From contig JBEWZL010000208.1 of assembly GCA_045837725.1 (NCBI GenBank), positions 62,001 through 126,000 on the forward strand: a stretch of DNA of 64,000 bases. The letters run 5' to 3'. The stretch comes from Vermamoeba vermiformis (Eukaryota). Made by a program: the position numbers and the translations under genes. This document shows positions 11,559-63,708 of this stretch, in pieces. The stretch's first letter is position 1, and each line of letters starts with the position of its first letter. Below the pieces are notes generated by a model. The model was not told the DNA's origin. It was given only the letters and a program-made list of their open reading frames with translations, and made no database searches.

Positions 11559-13448
11559 ATGAGCACAACGATTGCGCCATTGCCTCAACAGCAGTCAGCA
11601 GCGGCCATTAAAAACCGCGAGCTCACTAAAGAGGTCTCGGCGGCCCTTCAAAATGTCAATATAAATACAATCAAAGCAGCTTTAAAGGTCGGCAAGTTCA
11701 ATCCGACGAGTAACGCGAAGGCAGCGCTCATCCAGAACTTTGAGGACGTAGTAATCAAGCAAGGCATATCAGAATTCGTTTCTAGACTACAGAGAAAGAC
11801 CCTAAAAATAACCTGCAGAGCCTGCGAGATAGAGAACCCAAGACAACGAGCGTTAGCTGATGAGATCTTACGGGTCGGCATTGCAGACTTCCTCTCAATT
11901 AAATGCGACGTAAATTTATTAAGAGAATTTGGAAAAGTATTGGGATTGGACAAAGACCCTGTAGTGAAGTATTTGGACAAGTCGGCGACAGATTTGGAAC
12001 GAGAAATTGCTGATGAAATTATGCTTATCGGAATGGAACACTTTTTGAGGAAAATGCCTCTAGAATTAGTCAAGGTAATTATTTCGCTGATTACTGATTT
12101 TTAGCAAATTATTAAATATTTAATTTTACGTTTATGGCTGCACACGCTCAAAAGGCCAAAAAAATATTTTTACGAATAATTGAGCAAATGTACATATATA
12201 CAGGATTTTTGAAATAATTTTTGACCGTAATAAATAATAAATTTATTTTTCACAATTACGGAATTTTTACGGATCCTATTTAATAGGCCACTACACATCA
12301 ATTATACTCAAAAACTTATGGATTATTTTTACGTCGTGAATATTGCTAATATTTCAATACAGGATATTTGCAAAGATCTCGCCTTAACACCCCAAGGCAA
12401 GTCCCAGGCAGACTATATTGACCGCGTCATGACGCATTTTTTCAATTTGGAGCCACAAGACAAATTCCGACGACTTGAAGAGGAGAAAAGATTGCAAGCG
12501 AACGGCGTCAATGGTTCATTTTTGTCTGGCTACGACGAAACCAGTGACGGCGGCGCTAAGGGCGGTGCTAAGCTTGAATACTCAGACTTGATGCAAAGCG
12601 ACAATATGAACTATGATTATGAAGATGAGGAAGAAGATGAAGAGGACGACGATGAGAAAGAATTTGTTCCTCCGAAGAGTGTCATGAAGAAGGCTAAAAC
12701 ACCTAGAAGAAGCCTCGAAAAAGATCTTAACAGCAGTGAAAGCAGTGGCAGTGAGGACTCTGAAGTGATCAACGCGAAGAAACGGAAGTACGATGAAATG
12801 AAGGTAAGCCACAGTGTCGAAAAATTGACACTTGACACGCGCTCTTTGGACACGTGGATCTCAGATCCACTATGACCCATTAATGTAGCACATAATGCTT
12901 CAATACATAGATGCCAAGCTAACACATATGATGTACTATAGGAGTCAGATGAAGATAATAGTGAGGTGAGCGAGAAGGATGAAGACAACGACGACGAAGA
13001 AGTATCACGAAAGGCTAAGCGAGGCAAATACATCTCTCCTCCCCTAAGGTAATTAATAACAATAGTATTATACGCGATTTTATTGCCGTAACACTAATGT
13101 GCTATGTTGTGCAGTAATATCAAGAAGGGAATCACGGGCGATGATCTGCAAAACTTGTACAATCTCACAGACTTGCAAGAGTACTGCAAACAAAACGACA
13201 TTATTCACACGGGCAAGAAGCCACAGTTGATCAAGCGAATCATTCAGTATTTGGAGACCGGTCAAAAGACACCAAAGAAACCGAAGGGCAAGCGATCACG
13301 TGGCGCTAAGAGGAAGTCTGAAGAGGTAAGCAATACAAGGCTTCAGTACATTTTTAGTTTACTAATACTACATCGTGACTAGTCTGAGAGAGGAGACGGA
13401 CAAGATGACGATAAAAGTTCGAGGAGCGGTGACGAAGAGGATTCCTAA
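11559..13448 (+). CDS. Acidic/basic nuclear protein with SAP-like motif(s), about 5 exons
   Basis: LYNLTDLQEYCKQNDIIHTGKKPQLIKRIIQYL is SAP-like; a second weaker copy DICKDLALTPQGKSQADYIDRVM; D/E tracts and K/R-rich NLS-like segments. Confidence 0.6.
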
Positions 13449-13614
13449 AAAAAGAACACCGTGCTCGACTGACACCATTTGTACAACAACATGCTCGTTT
13501 GATAATGAATGTTATATAAATAGAATATCAATTACACGAAGAAGTAAGTTGGTTAAGATTTATTTTTAATGAGAAAGACAAGTTGGTTTGAAGAAGGTGC
13601 ACCTTTTCGTGACC

Positions 13615-16600
13615 TCACGGATGAGGGTACATCGAAGCCATTTGATTAAATAGGGACTCCATTTTCTGATCGTTCTCCTCTTCGACTGCTTCGTTGAAAG
13701 TGTTTTTGATGCGAGTATCAATTTTTCTGCGGAGCTTCTGAATCGCGTGGCGCACTTGCAGCACTTTTGTTGCAGAAATGCACTCTTTCAGCCGTTTTTC
13801 CATTTCAAGCGCTTCGTCTCGAATCTTCACCAGTTCTTCTCTTATCGTTAAGGCATTTTCAGAATTTTGAAGCGGCAGGCTTTGAAACTTGGATTTCAAC
13901 TCTGTTAATTTGTCACACACGCTCTCTAAAATCTGGACGGAAATGTCGTCTAATGCAAGCAGTGGGTTCTGTTCTTCTGCTGGTGTCTCGGTCGGCTCCG
14001 GAGAAGGTTCGGGCAATGCTAGTGGAGTGTTGTTGGCGGGCATCTTCATTCGGGCAATGCCTTGTTGAGTCAGCTCAACACTTTCATATGCTATCATATT
14101 CATTCGAGAAAGAAGCAATGTCGGGACTGAATTGTCTTCGACATCGCCCACCCTGAGGATGTAATCCGTGCTGTCTTCTGAGGTGTAGATAATCATTGTG
14201 AACTCGAAGCACAAGCACATGGCAGACAGCATGACTAGATCGGGAACAACGTCGCTTGTACATTCTTCAAGTCGCTTAATTCGTTCGTCCCAATCGTTCC
14301 AAGCGTCCTTGAATTTTAATCCCATCGGGTTGCTAGGCTTGTTGCTGTTCTCTTTTAACCAAGTCGCCAATTTTCTTCGCACCATCTTTGTTGCAGCCAC
14401 ATTGGCTACTGGGTCAATCAGGGTAGGATTGCGCTTGTATAACTCGAAGGCAATTATCGAGTACAGCTTGTTGCTATCTTGGTCTGCAAAGTGAATCAAT
14501 TTTTGTCGCATGAAATGTTGCTCGAGTCTGTCTTGCAGTCTTTTGGTTGCATTTGTTTGCACTTCAGCATAATCTTCACCTTCGGAGTCAGTGCTTTCAT
14601 CTGTAAGAGAGCTATCCAAGCTTGCGTCGTCATCACTGCCATCGTCGTCATCGTCATCGTCATCGCCAGATGGGCTATGGGTCTTTGCTGGCTTTCTTCG
14701 TAGGAGTCGATCTCGAATTTTTGAGCCAAAATTCAGTAAATCCTGCTGGCTGGCCAAAAAGTACGCGTCAGTGACGATGTCGAGGATGAACCCCAGAATT
14801 CTGTACGGCAGCAACTTTGAAACGTATCCGAACATCTGAGCAACGATGCCTCCTTTGAGCACTTCCGTAACTGACTTTTTTGGATTGGCGATGCGTTGAA
14901 TGATCAACTCGGCAAGCAGTGCGATGGCAAAGCCAATGATTGCGGGGAAAGCGAACATTGCAGTGAAGCCTAGCTTGGCCTGAAGTGCGCCGTACAGCAC
15001 GTGATAAAGAACTTTTCTTGCAAGGGAGAAGAGTGTGCTGTAAAATGTCGCTGAAGCCGAATGTTGAGCCAAAAACTGAACTCTTTCGCCAAGCGAATTG
15101 AACTTGGACCAATTGATCACGAGGTACACTGAGTTCTGACGAATAGAAGCTAACAAGTTGCCCTTCACTTCAGACATAAGTATATCTTCGTAATACTTCT
15201 GTCTCGCTTGATGCTCTTGCTTTTGGTACTCCTTTTCGTTCGCCTTGACATTCTCTTCGTACTGCTCTTTCTTTTGTTGGTTCTCCGTGTCGACTTTGGC
15301 TTTCTCTCGTTGATAGTTTTCTTGCTGCTCTCGTTGTCTTTGATTGAATTCGTTCTGTGCCGCTTGCTTGCGTGCCTCATTTTCGTTTCTTTTTTGTTCG
15401 ATATGGCGAGCAAGCTGGGCCTCTGCCAAAGCTCTTGCTGCTGCTTCATCATTGTGCCTCGCTCCAGGTCTAGCAATCAGGTTGCCATTTGCATCGTACA
15501 CAGCTGCGTAAGCGGCACCTCTGCCGCCAAAGGGTCTTTTTCGACCTCTTTCTATTTTAATTTGATAAGACTCTCTGAATATGGAAGGGTCATCATTAAA
15601 TTGAAATTGGCCAGGCTGAGGTTGCTGAACGGTGTTGAAAACAGGCTGTTCGATGACGGTTTGTTGCGGAAGCGTTAAAGTCGGAAGCTGCGAGGAGACT
15701 ACGTCAACAATACGATTGAATGCACGTTGACTAGTATCGGTCCATTGATGTTGGCTTATCTCTTTCAATCTGTCAACGTTGCGTTTCATTGCCTCGTCGA
15801 TCTTGTTCTTCATCGCAGTTTTTTCCATCCATCCAGCCATGGCGGTAGCAACGCGTTCGCTTGCAATCGAAACTGCGCGCTGGAAGAAGAATTCATCGAC
15901 AAAGAGTCCTCGCAATTGTTTGTTAGTCAGGTCTGCAATCCCTTGCTTGATGTACCAGTTGAAGTTTTCGTTGAGCTTCTTATCCCTAACTTTTTCGATC
16001 TTCTTCTTGATCTTTTCTCTGAACTCGGCATCAAGCAAATTGATTGCATCGTTGTGAATATCTAGCGCTCTCTTCAAGGCATTGTTGATTTCGGTGTAAT
16101 TGCTTGGAATTTTAATTCTCTGCAGCGAAATCTCGATGGCGTCCATTAATTGATAGTACGTTTGCTCGCTGACGTGCCGCAACCGCAATGGCAGATTAGA
16201 CGTGAAGAACGCTTGAATGGCTCCGTTGTTATCGAGACTGTCCATGATCGAAGTCCAAATGTGATGAATGTCGGGTCCGTAAAATGGAACTGCAGTGGCT
16301 AGATAGGTGTTGACCACTTGGGCGAAGTTGTTCAAAGCCAGGGTGAATTCAGGTACGATGTTCTGCGCAACGTGCAAGTCAACGTCAATCCGAGCGTTAC
16401 ACGGTCGAGGGAAGGAAAAGCATCTAAATCGAATCACTTAGCATTGTTGCAATAGAATAGCTTAGCGATTAAAGTAAAACTTACTGACTGGGAGGTACCA
16501 AAATTCCTGTCCGATGAATGTAAGTACCAAGATTGTCCCAATTAGGTTCTTTGTCTCGTTGAACTAAATAGAAAGCAGTGCTCATGGCAAGGATCCGCTT

Positions 16601-17068
16601 CTTGTCCTTCAACATTCTGTCCAGAAATTCGCGGAACTTGTCCAACACTTGAAAAGTAGCTGCGAGGCGCTCCTTGAAACCATCCACTTTTCCTTTGAAG
16701 TTGTAGATGATGGCATTACTAACGCTGAATACCAGATGCAAAATCAAATTGTCGTGTTTGTCGTTTTCTCCTATTCCTTGAGTGTCGATAAACATTCTAT
16801 CAGGTTTGGCGGGGTCGCGAGAGGGAACTATGATGACAAAGATGCCCTTTGTTTGGGCTTCCGCACGGTGACCGGGAGCAAAAGCGTCGCATCCAGACAA
16901 AATGTTGAGTAAGGTGGACTTGCCGGTTCCAACATCTCCTATGATGCTAATTACATGGCAGCGGTTGGCCAATTGCAAAAAATCATGAGCTACACTGGAG
17001 TTGTATACCAGATCTTCATCTTTCACGACGAACGCGGCGGTAGACTTCCACCTCGGGTTGCCTTCCAT
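13615..17068 (-). CDS. GBP/atlastin-like large GTPase with coiled coil, TM segments and a degenerate OTU-like domain (2 exons; intron about 16437-16488)
   Basis: VISIIGDVGTGKSTLLNIL (G1), TKGIF (G2), FIDTQG (G3), LVQRD (G4, GBP/atlastin type), then RCFSFPRP; hydrophobic FTAMFAFPAIIGFAIALLAELII; DQDSNKLYSIIAFELY...LVMLSAMCLCFEFTMIIY...AYESV. Confidence 0.8.
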
Positions 17069-17582
17069 TGTTTCTAAATGATAAGAATTAACACAAAATG
17101 AAAAGACTTATTTATATTCTGAAATATCTCGTCAATATCTGAAGCGATAAATGGCAGAAAAAACGTTGATTTCATGAAATTATGTCAAAAGCGAATTGTC
17201 CGGTGCACAAAGAATTAATCAATGAAATTTAATAATGTGCAATACGCGGTGATTTGTCGCTTATTTCCTAAATTTGATGTTTCTTGTCCACTGCCATAAA
17301 ATAAATGTCGGGCTGCAACCGAAAAGAATAACACAAACAATTAATTAATGCAACAATATACAAAGAATTGAGATAAGGAGTAGTTGATTTTCTGCTTACC
17401 ATTAGCTAAAGTTGCAATGGCTTATAAGGTCCTAATTAGTCGGCGGAGTTTTTTTGGTCAGAGATCCGTAATGTTCCTTCGTAGTAACGAATTTTAGTGA
17501 ATAACATTTATTAGTATTAACAAGCACGTAACTTTGTTTTGTGGGTCTTTTAGTTACGAGAAACAGATGAGTCGTGGGTGTC

Positions 17583-19186
17583 TTATTTAGGAGGTGCTTG
17601 ACCAGCAGCGGCGGCGGCAGCGGCAGCCTAAAAAAATTTATTACTTATGTGCAATATAGAAATGAAATTAAGCTTTTCGAAGCTTGATCCAACTGGATGT
17701 AGCCAGATCGAACAAACTGATATTCGAGTTCTAATAGCAGTAATCAATAATAATAGTGCTTACCTCTTTCTTCTTTCGCTCTTCTTCTTCAAACCAAGCA
17801 ACGTCCTTGTAATAATAAAATGCGCCTTGAGTTCTCAGTTCTTCTGGACCACCTTCAACAACGTGCACGCGAGTGTGACCCAAGCTTTCTAAGAATTCAG
17901 CGAACTGTTTTTGGAATAGAAGGTCAGACCTGCAAACGAAATAACGGCAAAGAATCGTTTCAATCGATTTTGGTCAAATTGTGCAAATGCGCCAAACCAT
18001 CGACACGAAAAAAATTAACGACGCGCCTAGAATCTCACGTGGAGATATTTCATCACGTGCTATGTTATTACTAAATATAGTAATGTAATTATCATCATTT
18101 GCGAGTTCCTTACTTGAAGAGCTTTGACCATGTCAGGGCCAGAAACGGTGTGTACGTAGATAGGTCTAGTCTTGGGCATCTGAATACAAACTACAGTTAG
18201 AAACAGCATATAATACGTGTTATTATAATATATTGTGCATAATAACGAATAAAATTGAAAGAGAGTCAATTTTCTCGCGAAAAAGTTTCGTTGTTGGATC
18301 GCGAGTTTGAACGATTGAAATGTTCTTTGTAATTTCCAAATAAGGCAATAACATACATCAGCCACGTGTTCCTTAGTAGTGCTGCTGAAAGGCAAGTTGA
18401 TTGTGCCCAAAATATGGAACTTCTCGTGTTCAAGAGGCTCGCGAACATCGAGGATGAGTGGGCTTTCGAGATCACGAACAGATCTGTTCAACTCTTGTGG
18501 CTTAACACGAGGTATAGTGTACTATAATATAGTATAACAATTATTAGTCTTTTAATCATTTCAGATAGGGTCTGCCGGATCTAAGACGATCGCGAAAATT
18601 GTGGATCGAGCGTTCGGTCTCGTTATCGTATATTTATGGTTTTATGCTCGTTATTATTTTAAATATTATTTAATTATTTTTGCAACTAATACTTACGACG
18701 TTGATTGGCTTGGGAGCAAACTCCGAGGGCTTATCAGCGTAAGAACGAACAAAAATGCTGCCAGCCATTACATTCTATAGAATAAATCCACTTATTATTA
18801 ACATATAATTGAGGGTATAATTATAGTCGTCTGTGAGTTTAGTGACGCGAGCAGATGCGATCAAAATTATTAAATTTTATTCTTACCTTGCTACCACGAG
18901 AAGCCTTGGCAAAAATTGATTTTCTTGCTATATAATTAAAATAAATGGTAAATAATTATTTTGAGGCCTACAGTAATTATTGTAATAATTATTATTTACC
19001 TGAGGTTCGAGATGTGGTGCTAATACGAGTTGACAATCGTCCCAAAGCGCCAAAGAAGCTATTCTAAATATTGTAAAATAATATTAACAATGTATCGGGT
19101 GCTAGAAGCTGAAGCTGATATTTGTTTGGATGTCGCAATCCACGTTGAAATAAATATCTCTGACAAATCACAAATTAACTTACCAT
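17583..19186 (-). CDS. Mitochondrially targeted rhodanese-like protein (catalytic Cys absent), about 8 exons
   Basis: MNSFFGALGRLSTRISTTSRTSARKS...RSY presequence; LILDVREPLEHEKFHILGTINLP; loop YVHTVSG; LESLGHTRVHVVEGG. Confidence 0.75.
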
Positions 19187-42116: not shown

Positions 42117-45100
42117 ATGAAAATCGAACTATTCGTTTCGTTTTTGCTATTTTTTACTTGCTTGGCGCAAGCCGCGTTCATCGGCAACTTCGATCTGAAA
42201 AGTACCGATCTACGATTGAATTCAGAGGTGAAAGTAAGTATTCTTCCTTCCGTCATATAATCAGACAATATGGTTAAAATAATATTAGGCCACAATTACC
42301 TTCGAAGAAGCTCAAGTGACCGTACCCAGGTTGTCGATCTCGGGCACTGCCGATACATCACTGGATAGAATCTTATCTGAAGACTCTCAAGGCGTCATTA
42401 TTATCAAGGTATTATTTTAACTGATTTCTGGCTTTGATTTAATTTTAGTAAACGAAGGCACCATCCCTCGGAGTTTCGAGCGCCAATTCGTTTGTACAAA
42501 ATAGCGGCCTTTATTTAACGAGCGCAATAACGTCTGTATTGACTTCACGATTGAATTTGCCAAGCCATGCCGCTCTTGGAATTGCCGCACTGGGTAAGTA
42601 CCCCACCTCAACAAAATAAATTATGTAGGTGTCGTATCGTAAAGCTTATTATTATTTATAGGACTTCTATCGACGGTTCGCTCTGATTCAGCTTTCGAGG
42701 TTCAAGTACGTTTCAGTATTTACGTTTAAATTTAACCGTAATCGAAGATACGAATTTCCTTTTTTGTAGATAGATAACTTACTAAATTTTAACTATGTAC
42801 TATTTAGATTATAGTCCAATACCCTGCAGGATATCGATTTAACTCGATAGAATTCAATCTTGCTGATGGTTCCGTTGCATCCAGTCAACAACTGAACGTC
42901 GGAGGTCTTGACATTAATGTCGGTCAATCTGGCTCCGTTGACATGAAAAATGTTGCTATTGGCTCTAACGTCAATATCAATGCACCAGTATCAGTGACGC
43001 TCTCACAGATAGCAATCTCGCAGGACTCAAGTTTGGATGTGCAATCCAACGGTGATATCTTTATGTCATTCTTACAGGTGGGGAGTAACTCCGATGCAAG
43101 ATAGTTCATATTAATAGTCATGTATAGGGCTTCGAGTTTTACGGCTCTTATTCAGTAAAGGGCAATCAGGTGGATCTACCTGCCAATTGTTCGGGCTACT
43201 TCGCAGAACAATCTACGCACTGGAACGTGCTTCAATTCTAATTCTGGCTCGCTGAATGCCCAGTCGTCATCGGGCACTGTCACCATTCACTTCTTGACAG
43301 CTGATCAAGTCGAAGGATACTGCACAAACTTCGCGACAAGTGACTTCGTTCCACCGATGCCAGAAGTCACTCCCATCACAACTCTTCCCGCTCAGTCGTG
43401 GAATACTATGAACACTTCTACTTGGCGAGGAACTGCACGTGGTTACTTGGCCTTGCAGTCTAATCAAATAGCCGGTGTCATGACGGCCACAAAGAACTCG
43501 TGGAACAATCCTATCATGTTGTTACAAGACGACGGAGAGTTCCTGCCTCACGGACTCAATCCTAGCAGAAGATACAGGCTCACTTTCTCGCTCAAATTCG
43601 GTCTTGACTTCACTCCAAACTTCAATTTGACAGCTCGTATCATGGCGTACGATGAACTCAATACATTTGACGATAATGAGGTATGCTATTACTTGGTACT
43701 TTGCAACTTATAATGCTTGTTGTAGGAAAGGGGTATTGACTGGAGCGAGGATCCAAAAGACGGAACTGTTGGTCGTGCTTTGGTCGAGTCAGATCCACTA
43801 CCTTTGGACGGTTGGACCACAACCAGCTGGAAGACTTTCTCCTATGAGTTCACACCTTCAGCCATGTCCCAGCGAGCCTACGCTGCTGTGTGGATAAGCG
43901 ACTTCCCTGACACCACCGTGTCCATCAAGGATGTCGTATTTGAGGTCTTTGAAACTCCGTACTCGATCCCAAATTTCTACGATGGGCATTACCGTGCTGC
44001 CTACATCCCTACAATGCCAGTAGAACTCGAGTCTAATCCCCGACAAAACTGTCCGCACTTACAAGACGGTCTCAAACGTTGGGAAGACGCCTCGACCTGG
44101 CGTAAGTACCGTGCAATGTTGATGACAGTTCCTTGCATTAACACATTGTTTTTAGCGAACGGCGTCCCTGCAGCCGGATCGTCGGTCACATTGCCTGCCA
44201 ACACTAAAGTTTTGGTCGGTCCTTGTTCATTTACCTCCAAAACTCCTTTCACTGAAATCACTGTACCCGAATCAAGCGAATTGATCTTCGCTGACGCCCC
44301 CATTGACATGCACGTTAAAACTATTTGGGTCAATGGTGCATTGAGGTAGGTTACAATCTGTTAGCAGGCGAGGGCGAAGCTAACTTTGAACAGAATGGGC
44401 TCAGAGACATGTCGCTTGTTCTCGAAGATTTCCATTACCTTTTATGGTACTCGACAAGAGACAGCCAATATGGGCAAAGGAATCGTTGTCTCAGAAACAG
44501 GTACGCTAGATATTCACGGCAAACAGTACAACCCAACTTGGACTCGTCTTGCCGCACCTGTCTTTCCAGGTGACACACGAATCTACTTGCAACATCCCGT
44601 CAACTGGGAGGCAGGCCAAAAGATCATGTTGACAACATCAGGCCTCTTTGATTTGTACTACGACATGAACGAAGTGTTGACAATCAAATCAGTCAACCAA
44701 AAAGTCGTGGATCTCGTAACACCGGCACTGCGATATCACCACGCCGGTCCTGAGTACCAGAATGAAGTGGCACTATTGACACGAAGAATTCTGTTACAAG
44801 GTGCCGAGGACTCTGTTAGCGGAGCATTTGGAGGTCACGTGATGATCATGGGTGAAGGCCGAGTACGTGGCGTTGAGACGTTCAGAATGGGTCAAAACAA
44901 CACGCTTGCTCGCTATCCAGTAAGTTAATTAGCATACTATGCATCTGTTCATTTCCAAATATAGTAACCGTCTTTACAGTTCCACTTCCACATGATGGGC
45001 GTGGCACCCGAGTCATACTTCATGGACAATAGTGTGCACGACAGTTACTTCAGATGTTACACTGTGCACGGCACTTCCAACGTCACTGTCGCGAGAAATG

Positions 45101-51628: not shown

Positions 51629-54600
51629 ATGAGCGGAAAATCAAAAAGAAAAAATGATTCTAGGCAACTCACAGAGGAGATAGAAGACAGAGAGCTCGGC
51701 AAATACGTAAGCGAATATTGTAATTAAATAACGTCTGCACATCTTCAAAAATTTAAATACCGGGGCTACGGAGAATATCTTGAATCATCGTATAGCCAGA
51801 TATTCTCATATTCAAAATATACGAACATATTTGGCAAACGAAAATAACCTAACAAGCAGAGTTTTACAGTAGATTTAAAAAAATAAATATCGAAATAACC
51901 CTTGATATTATTATACAGCACATTGGAGAGGCTCTTGGACGAGGTGCATTCGGAGTTGTATATAAAGGATTGAATTTCGAGACAGGAGAGACTGTAGCAA
52001 TTAAGAGAATTTCAACAGAGAAGATTGCAGCCGATGCGCTTGCCTCAGTCGAAGCCGAGTTAGATCTGCTCAAAAAATTAAATCATCCGAATATTGTCAG
52101 CTATGTTGGATGTCATAGATCAGAGAAGCATCTTAATATCATCTTGGAGTACATCGAGAACGGATCTCTTCAAGCTATCGTCAAGAAGTTTGGAAAGTTT
52201 CCAGAAACACTCGTAGCTGTATATACTATGCAAGTGCTAGAAGGTCTTGAATATTTGCACGAGCAACACGTGGTTCACAGGTACATCTCGAAATGGAAGC
52301 GAAGAAATTATTTTATAATTTTTCTAACACAAATTACGCATTATTTAAGCGGTCATTATCACTACTCAAATATTTTTTACTATAATTCATATTAGATATC
52401 ATTTTTGAACGAAGAGATTGTCCGTCCAATTTTTTTTGCATTGAAAATGCGCGCAATTAACTGTGGCCTATTTTTGTTGAACAATAGGCATTTCTAAATA
52501 ACGATTATACGGAAAATCTTCAGTATAATCACGCGCGGATTTTTAATCTTTTAAAATTAATGTTCAAAAGATTCTTTAACTGCATTCACGGCCATTAATT
52601 ATTTTTAATGAAAAATTCGTATTAACGATGCTAATGACCATATTATTATAGAGATATTAAGGCCGCAAATATTTTGACGACGAAAGAAGGCACGGTAAAA
52701 TTGGCTGATTTTGGTGTCGCGACTCTGGCTAAAGTGGATAATTCAAATGAAGCTGCATTAGGCAGCCCTTATTGGTACGCATTATGAATACGATATATTA
52801 CGCATATTAAGGCATATTATTATAATTGTCGGTTGATTTGCCGTTAAAATTTGATTCAATTGCCAATATTCGCTCATTGGAAATTCTAGAAAAAGCTTAA
52901 TTGCGAATTCAATTCTAATATAGCCTTATTTAGGATGGCACCTGAAATTATCTCGATGAAGGGCGCTCAAACAGCTTCAGATATTTGGAGTTTGGGTTGC
53001 ACGATTATTGAATTGATGACCGGTCAGCCTCCATTTTTCAATTTGCCGCCGTTGTCGGCGCTGTATCATATCGCCGAATCAGATGAGCTGCCGCCCTTCC
53101 CTAAAGTACGTATACTAAATTAGGAATTAATTCCTGCGCGTATCACAAAAAAGAATTCAATCGCGCGACCGGCGCGACCGAATCTCAATGTTGTTACAGC
53201 CAATTACGGCATAGAATAATATACTGATCCTAACATTGATTAGGATATCACTGAAGACCTAACAGACTTTTTGAAACAATGTTTTGAGCGAGATCCATCG
53301 AAGCGCCCAACAGCTGAAGATCTGTTGAGCCACCCATGGATTGACGCAGCTCGTGAACGTAAAGGCGGTTCTGGCTCATTCGGAAAGGCAAGCCAAGCCT
53401 ATTATACTTATGTAAATGGTATGCTAATGATTACATAGGCTGCTGGAAATGCCGTTTTGAACGTGAGCAAGAAGCGAAAAAATCAAAGTCTGCGAGGTCC
53501 CAAAAACGCTAACGGCAAAGCTGATAAGCCTGGTATTTTGCGAAGCGCATCTTCAGCACAGCTAGGCATTTGGTCGTCATTAGAGGAAATCACAAAGCTC
53601 GAAGAACGTACGTGATCCGGAGATTTTGCCGCAGATCCAAAAGTAACCGTTACTTTTTTTGACTAGATCTTGAACAATCCAGAGAAAAGGTTATTTTGGA
53701 AGTCCGAAACAACCGTTTGTTAGAGCAACAGGTCAAGAGGCTAGACAAAAAGATTGAGTTGCTGATCAAGAACAGAATTACACTCGAAGAAGTATTGAAC
53801 ACGCCCAAATCATCACTGCTGTCCAAAACAAAGTTCCGTGGCTCATTGAACGTTGATGAAGCATCGTTGAAAGACCCAAAGATGCTCGAGGTAAGTTGAT
53901 GAGCGACAAAGACAGAAAACAAGGCACAAATCAGTCCGTCACTTTTTAGTGCAGCGAAGTGGTGTGGCTCGTTTTTTTCAAAGCGGCGGATAAGAAATTG
54001 GGCCGTTTAGCTCAGTTGGTTAGAGCATCGTGCTAATAACGCGAGGGTCCCAGGTTCGATCCCTGGAATGGCCAATTATATTTTTTCCTTTTTTGCCTTG
54101 TCAACCCTCTGCCTCCTTTTCTTGCCTCGCACTCCGCCTCACCACCTTACTGAGCTTATCATTAATTAAAGCACGGTTATTAATTTTTTTTTGGTTAGGG
54201 CTACTCCAAGCTGTTCTACGTTCTTCAGGCCAATCCGCAGTATCTTTCCAACTTTATCTTCTTCGAGTTCGATGGTGTTGAAGAGATGATCGAAACTATT
54301 ATTTTGACGCTTTACGGCTACGCCTTTTCAGCCCGAGAAGAGTTTTTGTTGCTGTCTTTCTTAGGATCAGCAATCTCGCGAGAGATTAAGAACTTGAGCG
54401 ATATTACTGCCTTCCAAGAAGGAGCTGCTCTTCTTATTCAAATGGTTATGGCTTATTGCCGGTAAGTTTCGCGGATTTAGATGCGCTCATCTAAGTTACC
54501 GTTACTAACCTGATTTCATTCAGACGTGTACAGGAACAAGAGTTTATTCGCTCTCTTCTAGGCAACGTCATCGAACAGGTGCTTGCTAAGGCGAATGTTA

Positions 54601-57429
54601 GCTTGGAAATTCAACCCATGAAGGTCTATAAGGATCTCATTAACGAGGAAGAAATGACTACAGGAGGTCAAAGTACATTGAATCCTGATGCTACTGAAGC
54701 TGAAGTGCGCAACAATCCACGCGTACAAGAACAGCTCAAGAAGCGAGTACGACAGCTGATCGAGTTGTCGGATTTGTTCATCAATGCTATTATCAACTCC
54801 TTGGACTTCTTCCCTTACGGTCTGCGATGGATCTCGAAGCAGATCCGTATGGCTCTCGGCGACAAGTTTAAGAACGCTACTAATACCGAAATTATGCCTA
54901 TTATTGGGTGAGTACAAGCAAATCCGCGTGCTGTCATAGAATCTCCGCGTCGGACAATTACAATGTACTGACAAAGGCTTTACTTTACTATAGTTACCTT
55001 GTATACTACCGTTTCATGAACCCCGCTATCGTTACTCCTGACGACTACGAAATGGCAGATTCGGTCAGCAATTTGCAACGTACCAACCTCATTAACGTAA
55101 GCTTCGGTTTTATTTCCTATTTTTATCACCTATTCGGTTATTTCATACTCTGCCTATTAACGCAATTTCTTTATTGATTTACCTTCGGATATTTCCTTTG
55201 TGTTAATCTATTTTGTCCCCGCAGATCTCCAAAATTTTGTCGAACATTGTCAACAACAAGTATCTCGAAGGCCGTGGCAGCGAAGTCGAGGAGCTCAATA
55301 GCTACATTAAGAAGAGTAACGAACGATTCTGGAAGTTTTTGGATCAAGTAACGCAAGCGCCAGATCCGATCGAACACCTCCAAGTCAGTACCAACCGACA
55401 ACGAGTCATTATAGGCCTAAGATACTAACATTGCATAATAGATCGATCAAAAGTACATCGAGTACACTCAGACGCAGAAGCCAGTAATTTATATCTCGCC
55501 CAACGAGATCTTCTTGACTCACAAGTTACTGCGAGAACACCTCGACAAACTCGCGCCTAATAAGGACGATCCGTTGAGAAAAGTCATCTCGAGCTTGCCT
55601 GGTAGGATTGCTATTTTTAAACTTTAATTTACATATTTTTAGCTCTTTTTTTGGTAGCGATCATCAATCAAGATTTAATGTGAATTATTTCTAGTGGCAT
55701 TTAAATTACATTACTTAATCAAGGTTAAAAGCCAATATTTCATTACTTAACCATACTCAGTTAATTTATCGATTGGTTTTTAATTTGGAGGTTTAATTCA
55801 TAAGAATGCAAACTCATTTTTTCGAACGGATTTGTCTAATTACTAAATATAGCTCCTCCCCCTATTATCGATGATCCTAAGATGGAGGCCGAGATATCGC
55901 TTACTCTGCAGCCCGAAGATACCCAAGAAGTCGATAGTAAGTCGTGCTGACTTGTTTCCATATCGATTGAACGCGCTAACGGATTCGTTTTTTTAACGCA
56001 GTTCAAGTCAAGCAAGATAAGGAAGAGGTTCATAAGTTCTACTCGTTGACCAAGAAGATGATTTGCGAGATCATTAAGGACAGCTACAAAGAGCACTTGA
56101 ACGAGCTGAACTTGCTCGATCTGCTCACGGGCTCAGATGTGAAAATGAACAGCAAGCTTACTTTGCAAGTCGCTAAGATCTTGGAGAACTTAGAGAAGTT
56201 GGAGAAGAGCAATATGGTCAGCAAGGCTAACTCGTATAAGAAGATTATGGATGACATCCACAAGGTAAACCAGATTCACTAAACGTAAATCAAAAGCTTG
56301 CTGTTGCGATATTAACGTGGATTTTTAGGACGTTGTATCGAAGACGGAGATGCGCGGTAAACTTGAAAAGGAGCTCACTACCTTGAAGAACGTAAGTACC
56401 GCATCTATTTCGCTTAGTGTTGCGATTAGGCCGGGTCTCGGAGACCTTCCGTGCCTCTAAATTTTATTAATAACGTGCTCGTAAAATTTTTCCATTTTTG
56501 TCTATTTTTGCAACAATTTTGCCAACGAGCGCGCAAAATCACCTTTTTTAGATCCGGGGCTCTCTTGCCCGACTTTAACGATTCAAATTTCTTATGCCGG
56601 GTTACTATCTCTACTTCCATCACTAGCGTTTAGCGATCGGTGTTGACTTGCGAAATCCGGGTGCGAATCCGTTACTAACCAACGTTTTTCAGACCATGGA
56701 CAAACTCAAAGAGAAGAAGGATTACCTCGAGAAGCAGTTAAACGAATATAACAACTATGTTAAGGCCTGCTTAGAGCAATCTGTCGTTAAGTAAGTCATT
56801 TCTCGTTGTTGTTGATCGGGTGGATCGAGCATTTACTAAACACCTCGTTTATCACCTATAGGAAGAAGGCTAGCAGCAAGAAGAAGAAGCTGGCGACCTT
56901 GAAGTATACCTGCGCTCAACTGATCAAGAAGGGCGTTATTGTCGAGATCGACATCCCTTCGAACCAGTAAGTCGTTTGGGAACTTGAACTCAATTCCTAA
57001 TTAGTACTGATCAATATACTTTATAGACATTCGTCCGTATCATTAGAACTGAGCGAAACTGATCAAGTTGGCACGTACGAGGCCCAAATCTACTTCGCCG
57101 CCATTAGTGTCGAGAAAATTAAGCTGGAGATTGATGATCTGCTTGAAAAACAAGTAAGTGCATCCGATCCATTAGATCTTATTATCAATATTTATTTATC
57201 AATCGCTAAATCATGCGATAAGCTCCGCTGAGCTTCTAGAAACACAGGCAATCGAATCTGATTGCTTAGTTTTGCTTTTTAAACTCCAACCGTCATCATT
57301 CGAATATATATTGATCTATATATTGTATTATAGTACAACGGCGAGTACTTTGTATATTTGTTGGACAGAAGATGCAAGTTGCGTATTAACTTGCTTATCC
57401 ACATTCTGAATAAGATCGCCGTCCAGTAA
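51629..57429 (+). CDS. Cdc15/Cdc7(SepA)-like STE kinase fused to an IQGAP-like RasGAP-related and RasGAP_C region, multi-exon
   Basis: [38 protein letters not shown]; then [93 protein letters not shown]. Confidence 0.88.
54001..54074 (+). tRNA. trnI: tRNA-Ile, anticodon AAT, inside an intron of the kinase-IQGAP gene
   Basis: GGCCGTT...AATGGCC-A acceptor stem, D-arm TAGCTCAGTTGGTTAGAGC, anticodon loop CTAATAA, T-loop GGTTCGATCC, followed by a T6 Pol III terminator. Confidence 0.96.
54081..54086 (+). terminator. RNA polymerase III terminator (T6) of tRNA-Ile
   Basis: TTTTTT starting 7 nt after the tRNA 3' end. Confidence 0.75.
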
Positions 57430-60259: not shown

Positions 60260-61844
60260 ATGCTGTCTGTCGTACAACGTAATAAACAATAACATTCATT
60301 ATCGTAAATAATAAATCAGACACCTAAAAATCGTTTATAATGTGATCTTGTTGCGAGATAAATTTCTTAACAACCATTGCTTTAATAGAGATAAATATCT
60401 GGTCATCACAGACGACAAAGATGATACGGTAGACAAAATTATCAAAAAATTGCAAGAGTATTCGCTGTTGAAGGCCGTAATGATAGACAGAGAAATTGAA
60501 CCGCCCTCTGATTTCCTCAAACTATGCCAGGCTATGAATAGTCATCCTCGTATTGAAGCCATTGGATTCGGAAGCTCAAAGCCATCAGAATTGAGTTATT
60601 CATATTGTCGTCAGATCGCGGAGTGGATCAAAACATTGAACACGAAGAAGACTTTCAAACTGCTCCTTCAAAATAGAGAAGCAGATTATGCCAGCTGGGA
60701 GGTCATATTCAACACTATTAATGACAGTAAAGAGATTACTGAATTATTATTTGATTATCAAACTCAGTTCAGTAGCGTGCTAGCAACGTTTGTTACTCAA
60801 ACCATCAGATCTAACACCACTATCAAGACGTTGAAAGTTAAAACGAACGAAAGAGATACGTCAGAATCGATAATTAAGGCATTGATCGACAATAAGACAA
60901 TCACGAGTGTTGCGTTATCGAGATTGGATGACAACGACTGTCACGCAATTCAGACGATGCTGCAAACAAGCACAGCGCTACGATCAATATACATCCACAA
61001 TAGCTCGATCAAAGGTCATGGCCTTAAGCATATTTATGACGTTTTGAAGGACAACACCTCAGTGACATCGTTCGGACTTGGCGGCAACTCCCTCACTGAC
61101 GAAGGGTGTCAATGGATCGTTCAAATACTTAACGACAGAAGATTGAAGGAGCTCCGGTTGCCTAACATCAAATTGACGCCAGAAAACTCCACTATTATTC
61201 TCGAAGCAGTCAAGAACAATAGGACTTTGGAAAAGTTGTGTTTGTCATCGAACGAACTTGACTCCGTGGCGGCACGAATTGGCGAAGTCATCAAATCCAA
61301 TACGACGTTGAAAGATCTTGATTTATCGAGGTGTAACCTTCAAGATAAGATGGAGCTAATTGCCGCTGGATTGGTTGAAAATAAGACCCTGCGAATGTTG
61401 TCACTTGAATGCAACGATCTTCACGTTAAAGATACACTTGTAATATGCGATGCGCTGCTCAAGAACAAAGGACTGACAGGCCTGAATATACATGGATCAG
61501 GGTTCATTCAGTCTAACAGTAAGACGGTTTGCGAGACGGTTGAAAAGTGTAGACATTTGGTGGATGTTCGAGCGAATGTCAAAGGCTGGAAATTTGGCTA
61601 CGACCGCCAGTTGCGCATGGCACTGGAATTCAATTGTGCCCGACAGAATGCAGTTGTATTCAATAGAGTCATAATTATACTCAATATAGCACGAAATAAG
61701 CCACAGCCGTTGTTACCCGAGATCTGGGCATACATATTATCATTTATTGATACACCTGGCATTCATATCAATTGGAGCACTGTCATTAAAGAAGCCTTTG
61801 TGAACCCTCATCGAATAGATGTCGCAAAAAATATGAGACTGTGA
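60260..61844 (+). CDS. RI-like leucine-rich-repeat protein (NLRC3/CARMIL-type repeats), copy 1
   Basis: Repeats of NxTLxxLxLxxNxL; short first exon MLSVVQ (start tentative); C-terminal LLPEIWAYILSFI. Confidence 0.85.
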
Positions 61845-62056
61845 CGTTCAGACGGAAGAATGGCCTTAAGCCTTCGACTAATAAAATGTTAGCATCGTTA
61901 TAATGAATTCCTGTTCTCGTGCACGCACTCAACACTATTTTTTGTTTTTTGACATCCAGTTTCCGTTCGCGACGCGTATCACACCACAAGTCAGCTTGCC
62001 GGAGAAGAATCAATATTAATGATTTAATTGTGCTTCGTGAATATTGCGTCAACATA

Positions 62057-63708
62057 ATGGAATACAAAACGTGAGTGTGGATTTGAAGTTTGGGGCTCGC
62101 CCCCAAAATATTAATCTTCCTATTTTAATTAAAATAAAATTATTGTGCATTACTATTTTATTAAAGCATTAATTTATAAATATTATCAAAAGAGACACGT
62201 TTATTTATTTCTAACGGGTTTTTAGTGCAGATATTCTGACAATTACGGACTCAAAGGAGGCCGATCAATACGATATTGCAGTTAAGGAGCTGCAAGGCCG
62301 ACCATTCTTGAAGGCAGTCGTATTCAAAAGCAAAATCGAACCGTCTTATTCCGATTTCGTTACCTTGTGTCATACGATAGGCACTCATCCTCGTGTTGAA
62401 TGTTTAGGCCTAGTAGAATATCACTCGGAATTAAAAGAAGCCGAGACTAAGCCGCTCGCCGAGTGGATCAGCAAAACAACAAAGCTGAAAAAACTATGTT
62501 TCAAAGATAGACTATTATCAAACGAATGTTGGAAGCTAATGTTCGATACAATTAATAGTAGCACTTCGATAACGAGCCTATCATTCGATTATCAAAATAG
62601 TCAGCGATTAGGTTTTCAGCACGAGTTTAATGGTGTCGAGCACTTGATCCAAACCATCAAAACCAATACAACAATTAGAGCGCTGAGTATTTGTATAAAT
62701 ACGAAACCTCATCGATTAAAGCCTATTACTGCAGCTCTTTTAGAGAACAAAACAATCACGGATGTCAAGTTATCGAAACTCTTTGACAGCGATTGTAACA
62801 CACTTCGGATGATACTCCAGCAGAATGACAAGCTTAAAGCACTTCATATCAATGACAGTATGATTAAGAGTGACGGTGTGAAGATAATATACGATAGTTT
62901 AAGAGAAAACAAGTCTTTGACATCCTTCGGATTCATCGGAAATCCTGTCAGTGACGAAGGATGTCAGTGGATCATACGCATGTTAAGCGACACAAAGTTG
63001 ATAGATTTAACGCTAGAAAATGTTGGATTGACGCCAAAAGCCACGAGGTCAATCCTTCAAGCTGTCAAGTGCCATCGATCATTGAAAAAGTTGAGCCTGG
63101 CAAAGAACGAACTCAACTCACTCGCATCACTTATCTGCGATGTACTTAAAGTTAATACGACACTAGAAGAGCTCGATTTGACGAAGTGTAATCTACAAGG
63201 TCAAATGGAGATTATTGCGAATGGACTGAAGGAGAATAGCACCTTGCAAAAGTTGTTGATCGGCGACAACGAACTCCATGTTGACGACGTGGAACACATC
63301 TGCAGCGCCCTTCACGAGAACAAAGGATTAACCTCACTTAATATGTCAAGATCAGCATTCCTTCAACATAATAGTGGCCAGCTTTGTGCTGCGGTTGAAA
63401 AGAACAAAGCTCTCATTGACGTGGAAGCCAACGTGAAAGGTTGGATTTATGGTTACACTACCAGGTTGAAAAATGCGCTACAAGTCAACCGTAAGCATCA
63501 GAATGCAGTGGTCGTTGAACGAGCCATTATCATTCTTAACATTGCTCGAACGAAGCCACGACCACTCTTGCCCGAGATCTGGATAACAATATTCTCATTC
63601 ATCTCGTCTCCTGGCATTCATATCAACTGGGGTCATGTTATCTCGCAAGCATTCGTCAACCCAAATCGCCTGGACATAACAAAGATCGAGAATAAACGTC
63701 AAGATTAG
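62057..63708 (+). CDS. RI-like LRR protein, copy 2 (tandem paralog)
   Basis: Colinear with copy 1; first exon MEYKT spliced to ADILTITD; C-terminal LLPEIWITIFSFI. Confidence 0.85.

Follow-up and report, generated by a model that had tools for sequence, protein, structure and literature searches.

A lineage-restricted Vermamoeba vermiformis gene encodes a predicted membrane-anchored GBP-type GTPase with an OTU-like segment lacking the catalytic residues

A 64,000-nucleotide stretch of Vermamoeba vermiformis DNA (assembly GCA_045837725.1, contig JBEWZL010000208.1, positions 62,001 to 126,000; hereafter the window) carries on its minus strand, at 13615..17068, a lineage-restricted, transcribed, two-exon gene that codes for a multidomain protein of 1130 amino acids. 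From its N-terminus to its C-terminus, the product is predicted to comprise a divergent GBP-type GTPase, a helical and then a charged region, one transmembrane (TM) helix, an acidic linker, an OTU domain devoid of its catalytic residues, a Pro/Glu linker and a helical tail. As judged from its sequence, the protein assembles known parts in a new way and has so far been met in one narrow lineage only. We tentatively favour, while giving it a little less than an even chance, the reading that this is a membrane-anchored GBP-type GTPase in which the dead OTU domain serves as a non-catalytic, ubiquitin-linked binding module.

The gene consists of two long open reading frames (ORFs) on the minus strand, 16481..17068 (195 amino acids) and 13615..16437 (940 amino acids), which after joining give a coding sequence (CDS) of 3393 nt, or 1130 codons. 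The junction reads CCCAGTCA / GTAAGTTTT at the donor side and GATTTAG / ATGCTTT at the acceptor side, with donor CA/GTAAGT and acceptor TTTAG/A. Exon 1 (16485..17068) contains codons 1-194 and two bases of codon 195 and encodes the N-terminal half of the GTPase domain, and exon 2 (13615..16423) extends from the remainder of codon 195 to the stop codon at 13615-13617. The intron that separates them (GTAAGT...TAG, 16424..16484) is 61 nt long; introns in the window measure roughly 60 nt and, together with the neighbouring genes (SAP, Ras, G8/CEMIP-like, RasGAP), mark the DNA as eukaryotic. An earlier sequence-only reading of this DNA had assumed that the two exons are spliced together, and this was borne out by a 3508-nt contig from run X4, which spans 13548-17131, covers 13548-16423 and 16485-17131 and omits exactly the 61 intron bases, the gap having CT..AC ends on the plus strand. 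The contig comes from a related organism, with 103 letters differing from the window over both pieces, and the library type of X4 is only guessed to be RNA. X4 contigs also lack the two GT..AG introns (13047-13112 and 13324-13380) of the neighbouring plus-strand gene, and because these are removed as well, we regard the X4 contigs as spliced transcripts. That neighbour, which is convergent with the GTPase gene and lies at 12318-13489, encodes a SAP domain (Pfam SAP_new25, E 4.9e-11, ORF 13104-13379); the 3' end of its contig at 13489 is about 59 nt from the 3' end, at 13548, of the contig of the GTPase transcript.

Comparison of the X4 contig with the window also informed on the constraint acting on the protein. 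Indels within the CDS amount to +6, +15, -15, -3, a cluster totalling -15, and -3, and all of them keep the frame. Over the last 355 codons (13618-14682), 34 substitutions were listed, 21 synonymous and 13 non-synonymous, which gives a pN/pS of about 0.16, a value that takes as complete for this stretch the 40 position-ordered differences, of the 103 in all, that reach up to 14682. The C-terminal third of the protein is under purifying selection.

The G domain places the N-terminus in the GBP family, as a divergent large GTPase of the GBP type. Exon 1 matches Pfam GBP (PF02263) with 40.7 bits (cutoff 21.1, E 2e-10) and thereby passes the gathering threshold; the match covers residues 19-129 (16682..17014) and profile positions 3-118 of 264. 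The nearest solved structures in PDB are chains of GBP2, GBP5 and GBP1 (E 2.2e-9 to 5e-8). Sey1 is a weak PDB match (E 0.015), RHD3_GTPase is a weak Pfam match (E 0.034), and no atlastin or RNF112 chain occurs among the best 60 of the 80 PDB matches obtained at E<=1. In the alignment with GBP2 (6vkj_A), GDVGTGKS is paired with GLYRTGKS, TKGIF with TKGIW and DTQG with DTEG; the G1 P-loop (residues 44-51, 16916..16939), the switch-I Thr and the G3 DxxG motif (DTQG, residues 95-98, 16775..16786) are intact and in register with those of solved GBPs. The sequence-only reading, which had called a GBP/atlastin-type GTPase with RD in the G4 motif, is upheld for the GTPase and partly for G4. An RD dipeptide is present at residues 171-172 (16553..16558), within VQRD (169-172), after a hydrophobic strand and at a plausible spacing for G4, and it lies outside every Pfam and PDB alignment; we retain it as a candidate motif. 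Neither a GBP chain nor a GBP or GBP_C model matched the first 150-200 residues of exon 2 in the Pfam and PDB searches. A PDB sequence search with residues 110-194 returned no GBP or OTU chain, nor did those with exon 2 and with its first 150 amino acids. Continuation of the G domain across the exon junction would rest on the splice itself and on CFSFPRP (CFxFxRP) in exon 2, which we take to resemble a motif of GBP1.

The OTU-like segment spans residues 826-990 (14038..14532), with an aligned core at residues 842-979 (14071-14484). From profile, language-model and MAFFT comparisons we judge it to be probably homologous to OTU domains. Reference OTUs were gathered by scanning viral contigs (33 loci) and metagenome contigs (120 stretches, 80 with DNA) for DGNCLFRA-coding patterns. 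Seventeen of the 25 non-redundant viral ORFs were above the Pfam OTU cutoff; the metagenome additions were verified by a viral OTU hidden Markov model built here, not by Pfam (94 matches, 51 of them reaching the His block). The final profile holds 41 sequences after redundancy removal, four of which are viral and below or outside the Pfam cutoff. Against this profile, hhalign gave a score of 30.2 (probability 71%, P 3.7e-5) over 124 columns running from DSNK/DGNC to AY/HY, a score that none of 300 shuffled sequences reached (best 21.8). A second hhalign run, in which the profile was the query, gave P 4.8e-4 (probability 32%, 123 columns) for the segment and P 0.52 for the 140 amino acids next to it. 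HMMER with filters off assigned 11.3 bits to the segment (profile positions 33-133 of 136, AY under HY), while the maximum among 2000 shuffles was 8.8 and the reversed sequence scored 1.5. Both programs rank the segment first among the 104 natural ORF tiles of the window. In an ESM Atlas language-model feature search, 29 of the 30 named matches were OTU-bearing clusters, the top one scoring 0.94 with 192 of 256 features shared; in the top three clusters, OTU is carried by only 19-35% of the members. The MAFFT alignment, in which identity to OTUs is 8-21%, has D844 and N846 in columns invariant over 38 rows, with K847 and A973 standing where OTUs have the catalytic Cys and His.

All three of MAFFT, HMMER and hhalign place DSNK (residues 844-847, 14467..14478) under DGNC and AY (residues 973-974, 14086..14091) under HY, as the sequence-only reading had proposed. 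The similarity, modest in strength, exceeds that of shuffled and natural controls. Cys occupies the Cys column in all 37 OTUs of the MAFFT alignment and is Lys847 in the window; the Lys recurs in the only relative found, a 95%-identical orthologue obtained from two sources, P0003 (Logan) and P0004 (ENA). Ala973 is likewise shared by both orthologue sequences, and the motif Asp of the window is Glu in them (ESNK). The alignments thus show the loss of the catalytic Cys and His. These two changes, Cys to Lys and His to Ala, are incompatible with an ordinary cysteine protease, and purifying selection on the C-terminal third argues that the dead domain is kept for another purpose. Residues 826-990 probably adopt an OTU fold. 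AlphaFold guided by an OTU alignment produced a confident model (pLDDT 81.9, pTM 0.77). In PDB, 43 chains match it at E<=0.001, the best of them all OTUs, including CCHFV OTU, OTUD1 and OTUD3.

Between the two domains, residues 290-440, which have no Pfam match, may by analogy be helical. A Q/P-rich stretch occupies residues 436-500, and the E/Q/A/K-rich composition of residues 520-612 (15172..15450) points to a probably helical, coiled-coil-like region. One strong TM helix is predicted at residues 679-703 (14899..14973; Kyte-Doolittle peak 2.41), for which the insertion-scale sum is -0.13 (681-699), versus at least 7.3 for every other segment in 601-789. Hydrophobic stretches do flank it at 645-675 and 721-753, with insertion-scale sums of 7.3-8.8 and a hydrophobic moment under the 0.45 reporting threshold. 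These scores show a membrane anchor predicted to be one TM helix. The charges on its two flanks are +3 each and uninformative for orientation. An Asp/Ser-rich linker follows at residues 776-825 (14533..14682), with 16 Asp when residue 826 is included in the count. Beyond the OTU-like segment, residues 986-1017 form a linker rich in Pro and Glu by composition, and residues 1018-1130 (13618..13956) are modelled as three long helices at low confidence (block pLDDT 58-67). The protein terminates in MYPHP and has no CaaX box.

For this part of the protein, the sequence-only reading had listed hydrophobic helices in the plural, an acidic linker and a C-terminal helical bundle, possibly BAG-like. The acidic linker was confirmed. 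The hydrophobic stretches exist and one of them is a strong TM segment, while the other two stay below TM scores and no two-pass hairpin is established. The bundle appears in the low-confidence model only, and its BAG likeness was rejected, the C-terminal 319 amino acids having no Pfam BAG match at E<=10 and no Pfam family above cutoff. The one sub-threshold Pfam match in these 319 residues, Psu (E 0.0022), was taken as chance along with matches to Presenilin and Ureide_permease, all of them below their cutoffs and lying over charged or hydrophobic stretches.

Searches for relatives returned nothing beyond the orthologue. It was the one protein retrieved by a word-indexed search with exon 2 among 8000 scored, and the sole match in an exhaustive phmmer search of the last 319 amino acids against 1.84 billion representatives. 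Exon 1 compared with longer proteins gave no match at E<=0.001 among 822 candidates, and the OTU-like segment gave none at E<=10 among 31. A scan of metagenome contigs yielded 598 pattern matches and scans of viral contigs yielded four for the C-terminus and six for exon 1, none of which was confirmed. No paralogue of the gene lies within the 64-kb window. A protein combining GBP and OTU was not met in the protein, metagenome-contig or viral-contig searches, and none of the literature titles listed was relevant to a GBP-OTU combination or to a GTPase with an inactive OTU, which is not proof of absence. The architecture had been described as unrecognised in the sequence-only reading, and so it stands after these searches.

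Under the favoured reading of a GTPase with a dead OTU binding module, the G domain would, by analogy with GBPs, atlastins and RNF112, bind GTP and dimerise or oligomerise on a membrane. Cleaving nothing, the dead OTU domain would serve as a non-catalytic binding module, for which an E2, ubiquitin or a ubiquitin-like protein would be the likeliest ligand. Assembly or membrane remodelling driven by the GTPase may in this way be coupled to a ubiquitin-type mark. GTP-dependent dimerisation, a cytosolic orientation of the OTU-like domain and the existence of any ligand are what we infer here. Of what the sequence-only reading proposed, the architecture is borne out; that the domain binds ubiquitin can only be conjectured, and an immune, anti-pathogen role of the protein is conceivable.

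Several results weigh against this reading, most of them at the level of the OTU assignment. Pfam OTU (PF02338) was unreported for exon 2 at E<=1 and for the C-terminal 319 amino acids at E<=10, and none of 25 viral OTUs was significantly similar to the segment when compared pairwise by phmmer. With a first OTU profile of 17 sequences, the hhalign alignment was limited to 38-39 columns about the Cys helix and its P no better than 0.011-0.017, the local score being equalled by one of 200 shuffles and the global score by none of 200. The HMMER domain score was only 5.2 bits when the segment was scored within the whole protein. The best unrelated tile, from a RasGAP_C region, attained 8.3 bits and an hhalign score of 17.6; it is a helical piece of the IQGAP-like gene described below and gave the best chance score against the OTU profile. 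Unbiased AlphaFold prediction of the last 319 amino acids, with a two-sequence alignment, failed (mean pLDDT 45.6). As for the guided model, its OTU match is circular because the alignment was chosen by the hypothesis, and it indicates compatibility only.

On such grounds the OTU likeness might have arisen by convergence or chance, which would make the C-terminal 350 residues an orphan domain carried by a membrane GBP-like GTPase. The missing Pfam match, the low identity to OTUs, the failure of unbiased folding and the probability of only 32% in the second hhalign run would all agree with this, as would the lack of intermediate homologues, the orthologue being the single match among the representatives searched. 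We nevertheless find a chance likeness improbable, given that three aligners recover four conserved OTU blocks in their proper order along about 124 columns, that no shuffled sequence (0/300 and 0/2000) attained the observed scores and that the language-model search, which is independent of the profiles, converged on OTU.

Further points against the favoured reading concern the GTPase and the membrane topology. The P-loop Arg of GBPs is their catalytic arginine finger, and it is absent from the protein studied here, where Gly47 occupies the position of the GBP2 Arg. Moreover, the GBP alignment is limited to residues 19-129, and the remainder of the G domain, RD included, is without alignment support. 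With one strong TM helix only, a single-pass topology could place the OTU-like domain away from cytosolic ubiquitin, on the side opposite the GTPase; TM topology decides whether the C-terminal 375 residues face the cytosol. The protein could accordingly have a cytosolic GTPase and expose its acidic linker, OTU-like domain and tail to the lumen or the extracellular space, where they would bind a ligand other than ubiquitin. This would suit both the scores, since 679-703 alone scores as TM and the next-best segments (7.3-8.8) are not strongly amphipathic, and the absence of an N-terminal hydrophobic signal from the protein sequence. The +3 charges on both flanks do not help to choose. We know of no OTU domain outside the cytosol or nucleus, however, which counts against such a topology. 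In addition, atlastin and RNF112 keep both ends cytosolic by means of paired TM or amphipathic elements (PMC12012479). On balance we consider a lumenal or extracellular OTU-like domain rather unlikely.

Expression data from the species itself also count on the negative side. Three RNA runs labelled with the species of the window (X21-X23) gave no reads on the gene, which is weak evidence on expression as they gave only 2, 4 and 5 reads on the whole 4.6-kb stretch from 13000 to 17600; either the gene is conditionally expressed or those libraries contain little of the organism. This silence and the narrow distribution of the family are what would be expected of a decaying fusion or a pseudogene without function. 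We give that explanation almost no credence, since the frame of 1130 codons is intact, a spliced transcript exists in a related organism, every indel preserves the frame, pN/pS is low and two further sources yield a prediction of the same protein.

A different question is whether the dead domain, accepted as such, has anything to do with ubiquitin. OTULINL (FAM105A), a membrane-associated pseudo-OTU located at the endoplasmic reticulum and nuclear envelope and devoid of catalytic activity, is reported to bind neither ubiquitin nor LUBAC (PMC7862380), which speaks against a ubiquitin-linked module in the protein described here. This precedent supports the possibility that, within the same architecture, the dead OTU domain is a ubiquitin-independent scaffold for protein interactions, without any link to ubiquitin signalling. 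The residues at the catalytic positions, Lys and Ala in both the window and the orthologue, and the Asp to Glu change in the motif also show a relaxed active-site constraint. Nothing direct stands against the scaffold explanation, purifying selection fitting either case, and we rate it as unlikely while taking it seriously. OTULINL is the nearest analogue for the tail of our protein, both having an OTU-class domain without catalytic residues at a membrane (PMC7862380). It differs in being a small stand-alone protein without GTPase that belongs to the OTULIN branch, whereas the guided, and hence biased, model obtained here is nearer to viral OTU, OTUD1 and OTUD3. Canonical OTUs (PF02338; OTUD1, OTUD3, OTUD5 and viral members) resemble the segment in block order and spacing, namely a D-x-N-[C] helix, an R-containing helix, a W-G-x-x-E-x-x-A helix, beta strands and [H]-Y. 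Relative to them, the segment has Lys for Cys, Ala for His, Ser for the Gly of DGNC and Val-Pro for the Trp-Gly of the WG block, and it falls below Pfam detection.

The favoured reading of a GTPase with a ubiquitin-linked dead OTU can also be set beside known large GTPases. Residues 19-130 match vertebrate GBP1, GBP2 and GBP5 best, in an alignment that pairs the P-loops, the TKGI[WF] motifs with their switch-I Thr, and DT[EQ]G. GBP1, GBP2 and GBP5 are isoprenylated. Unlike them, the predicted protein has Gly at the P-loop Arg, a TM helix instead of a CaaX box, and an added pseudo-OTU and helical tail, and the GBP C-terminal helical domain was not detected in it by Pfam. Atlastin, Sey1 and RHD3 have the same general plan, in which a helical stalk leads from a GBP-clan G domain to a membrane anchor on the C-terminal side; they differ in that here there is one strong TM helix rather than a pair, about 375 residues continue past the anchor, and the G domain is nearer in sequence to GBPs. 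The nearest analogue in logic is RNF112 (neurolastin), which joins a large GTPase to a ubiquitin-system domain in one chain with a TM helix (PMC12012479). It comprises a RING, an atlastin-like GTPase, a three-helix middle domain, a predicted TM helix and an amphipathic helix, and its E3 and GTPase activities are reported there to be independent (PMC12012479). RNF112 has an active RING E3 at its N-terminus, whereas the putative ubiquitin-system domain of the Vermamoeba protein is C-terminal, located after the TM helix, and catalytically dead.

Other features of the window were noted. On the plus strand, different ORF pieces of an IQGAP-like gene at 54495-56279 match RasGAP (E 5.3e-29) and, weakly and below cutoff, RasGAP_C (E 1e-4). 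The RasGAP ORF is closely preceded on the same strand by a tRNA-Ile gene (anticodon AAT, 54001-54074), which both Rfam (65.4 bits) and ARAGORN recognised. Two adjacent plus-strand ORFs at 43780-44925 contain the halves of G8, the second of them starting a CEMIP-type beta-helix, and look like an intron-split G8/CEMIP-like gene. A Ras-family small GTPase is represented by its C-terminal part (Pfam Ras, E 1e-21, profile 97-161 of 162) in the plus-strand ORF at 591-1037, presumably one exon of a split gene. Two long plus-strand ORFs at 60342-63705 (500 and 466 amino acids) have only sub-threshold LRR_6 matches, and a weak Rhodanese match below cutoff was seen on the minus strand at 18063-18491.

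In animals, GBP-family GTPases and the ubiquitin system cooperate, as separate proteins, in cell-autonomous defence and organelle quality control. The protein described here might conceivably be a ubiquitin-reading GBP in a single polypeptide, in which the dead OTU would recognise a coat of ubiquitin or ubiquitin-like protein on a damaged or pathogen-containing membrane and position the TM-anchored GTPase for GTP-driven assembly or remodelling. This is a speculative proposal that we consider distinctly improbable; if true, one protein would do what animals do with separate ubiquitin ligases and soluble GBPs. RNF112 is the one atlastin-like GTPase described as fused to a ubiquitin-system domain (PMC12012479). 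If the favoured reading of a membrane-anchored GTPase with a ubiquitin-linked dead OTU holds, the Vermamoeba gene would represent a second, independently evolved coupling of a GTPase with the ubiquitin system and a new example of a pseudo-deubiquitinase. So far the family consists of near-identical orthologues, and without further relatives or a phenotype it can claim only limited general importance. Should the pseudo-OTU bind ubiquitin, it would offer a compact system for how GTPase assembly is steered to marked membranes; should it not, the protein would add to the examples of enzyme folds turned into scaffolds.

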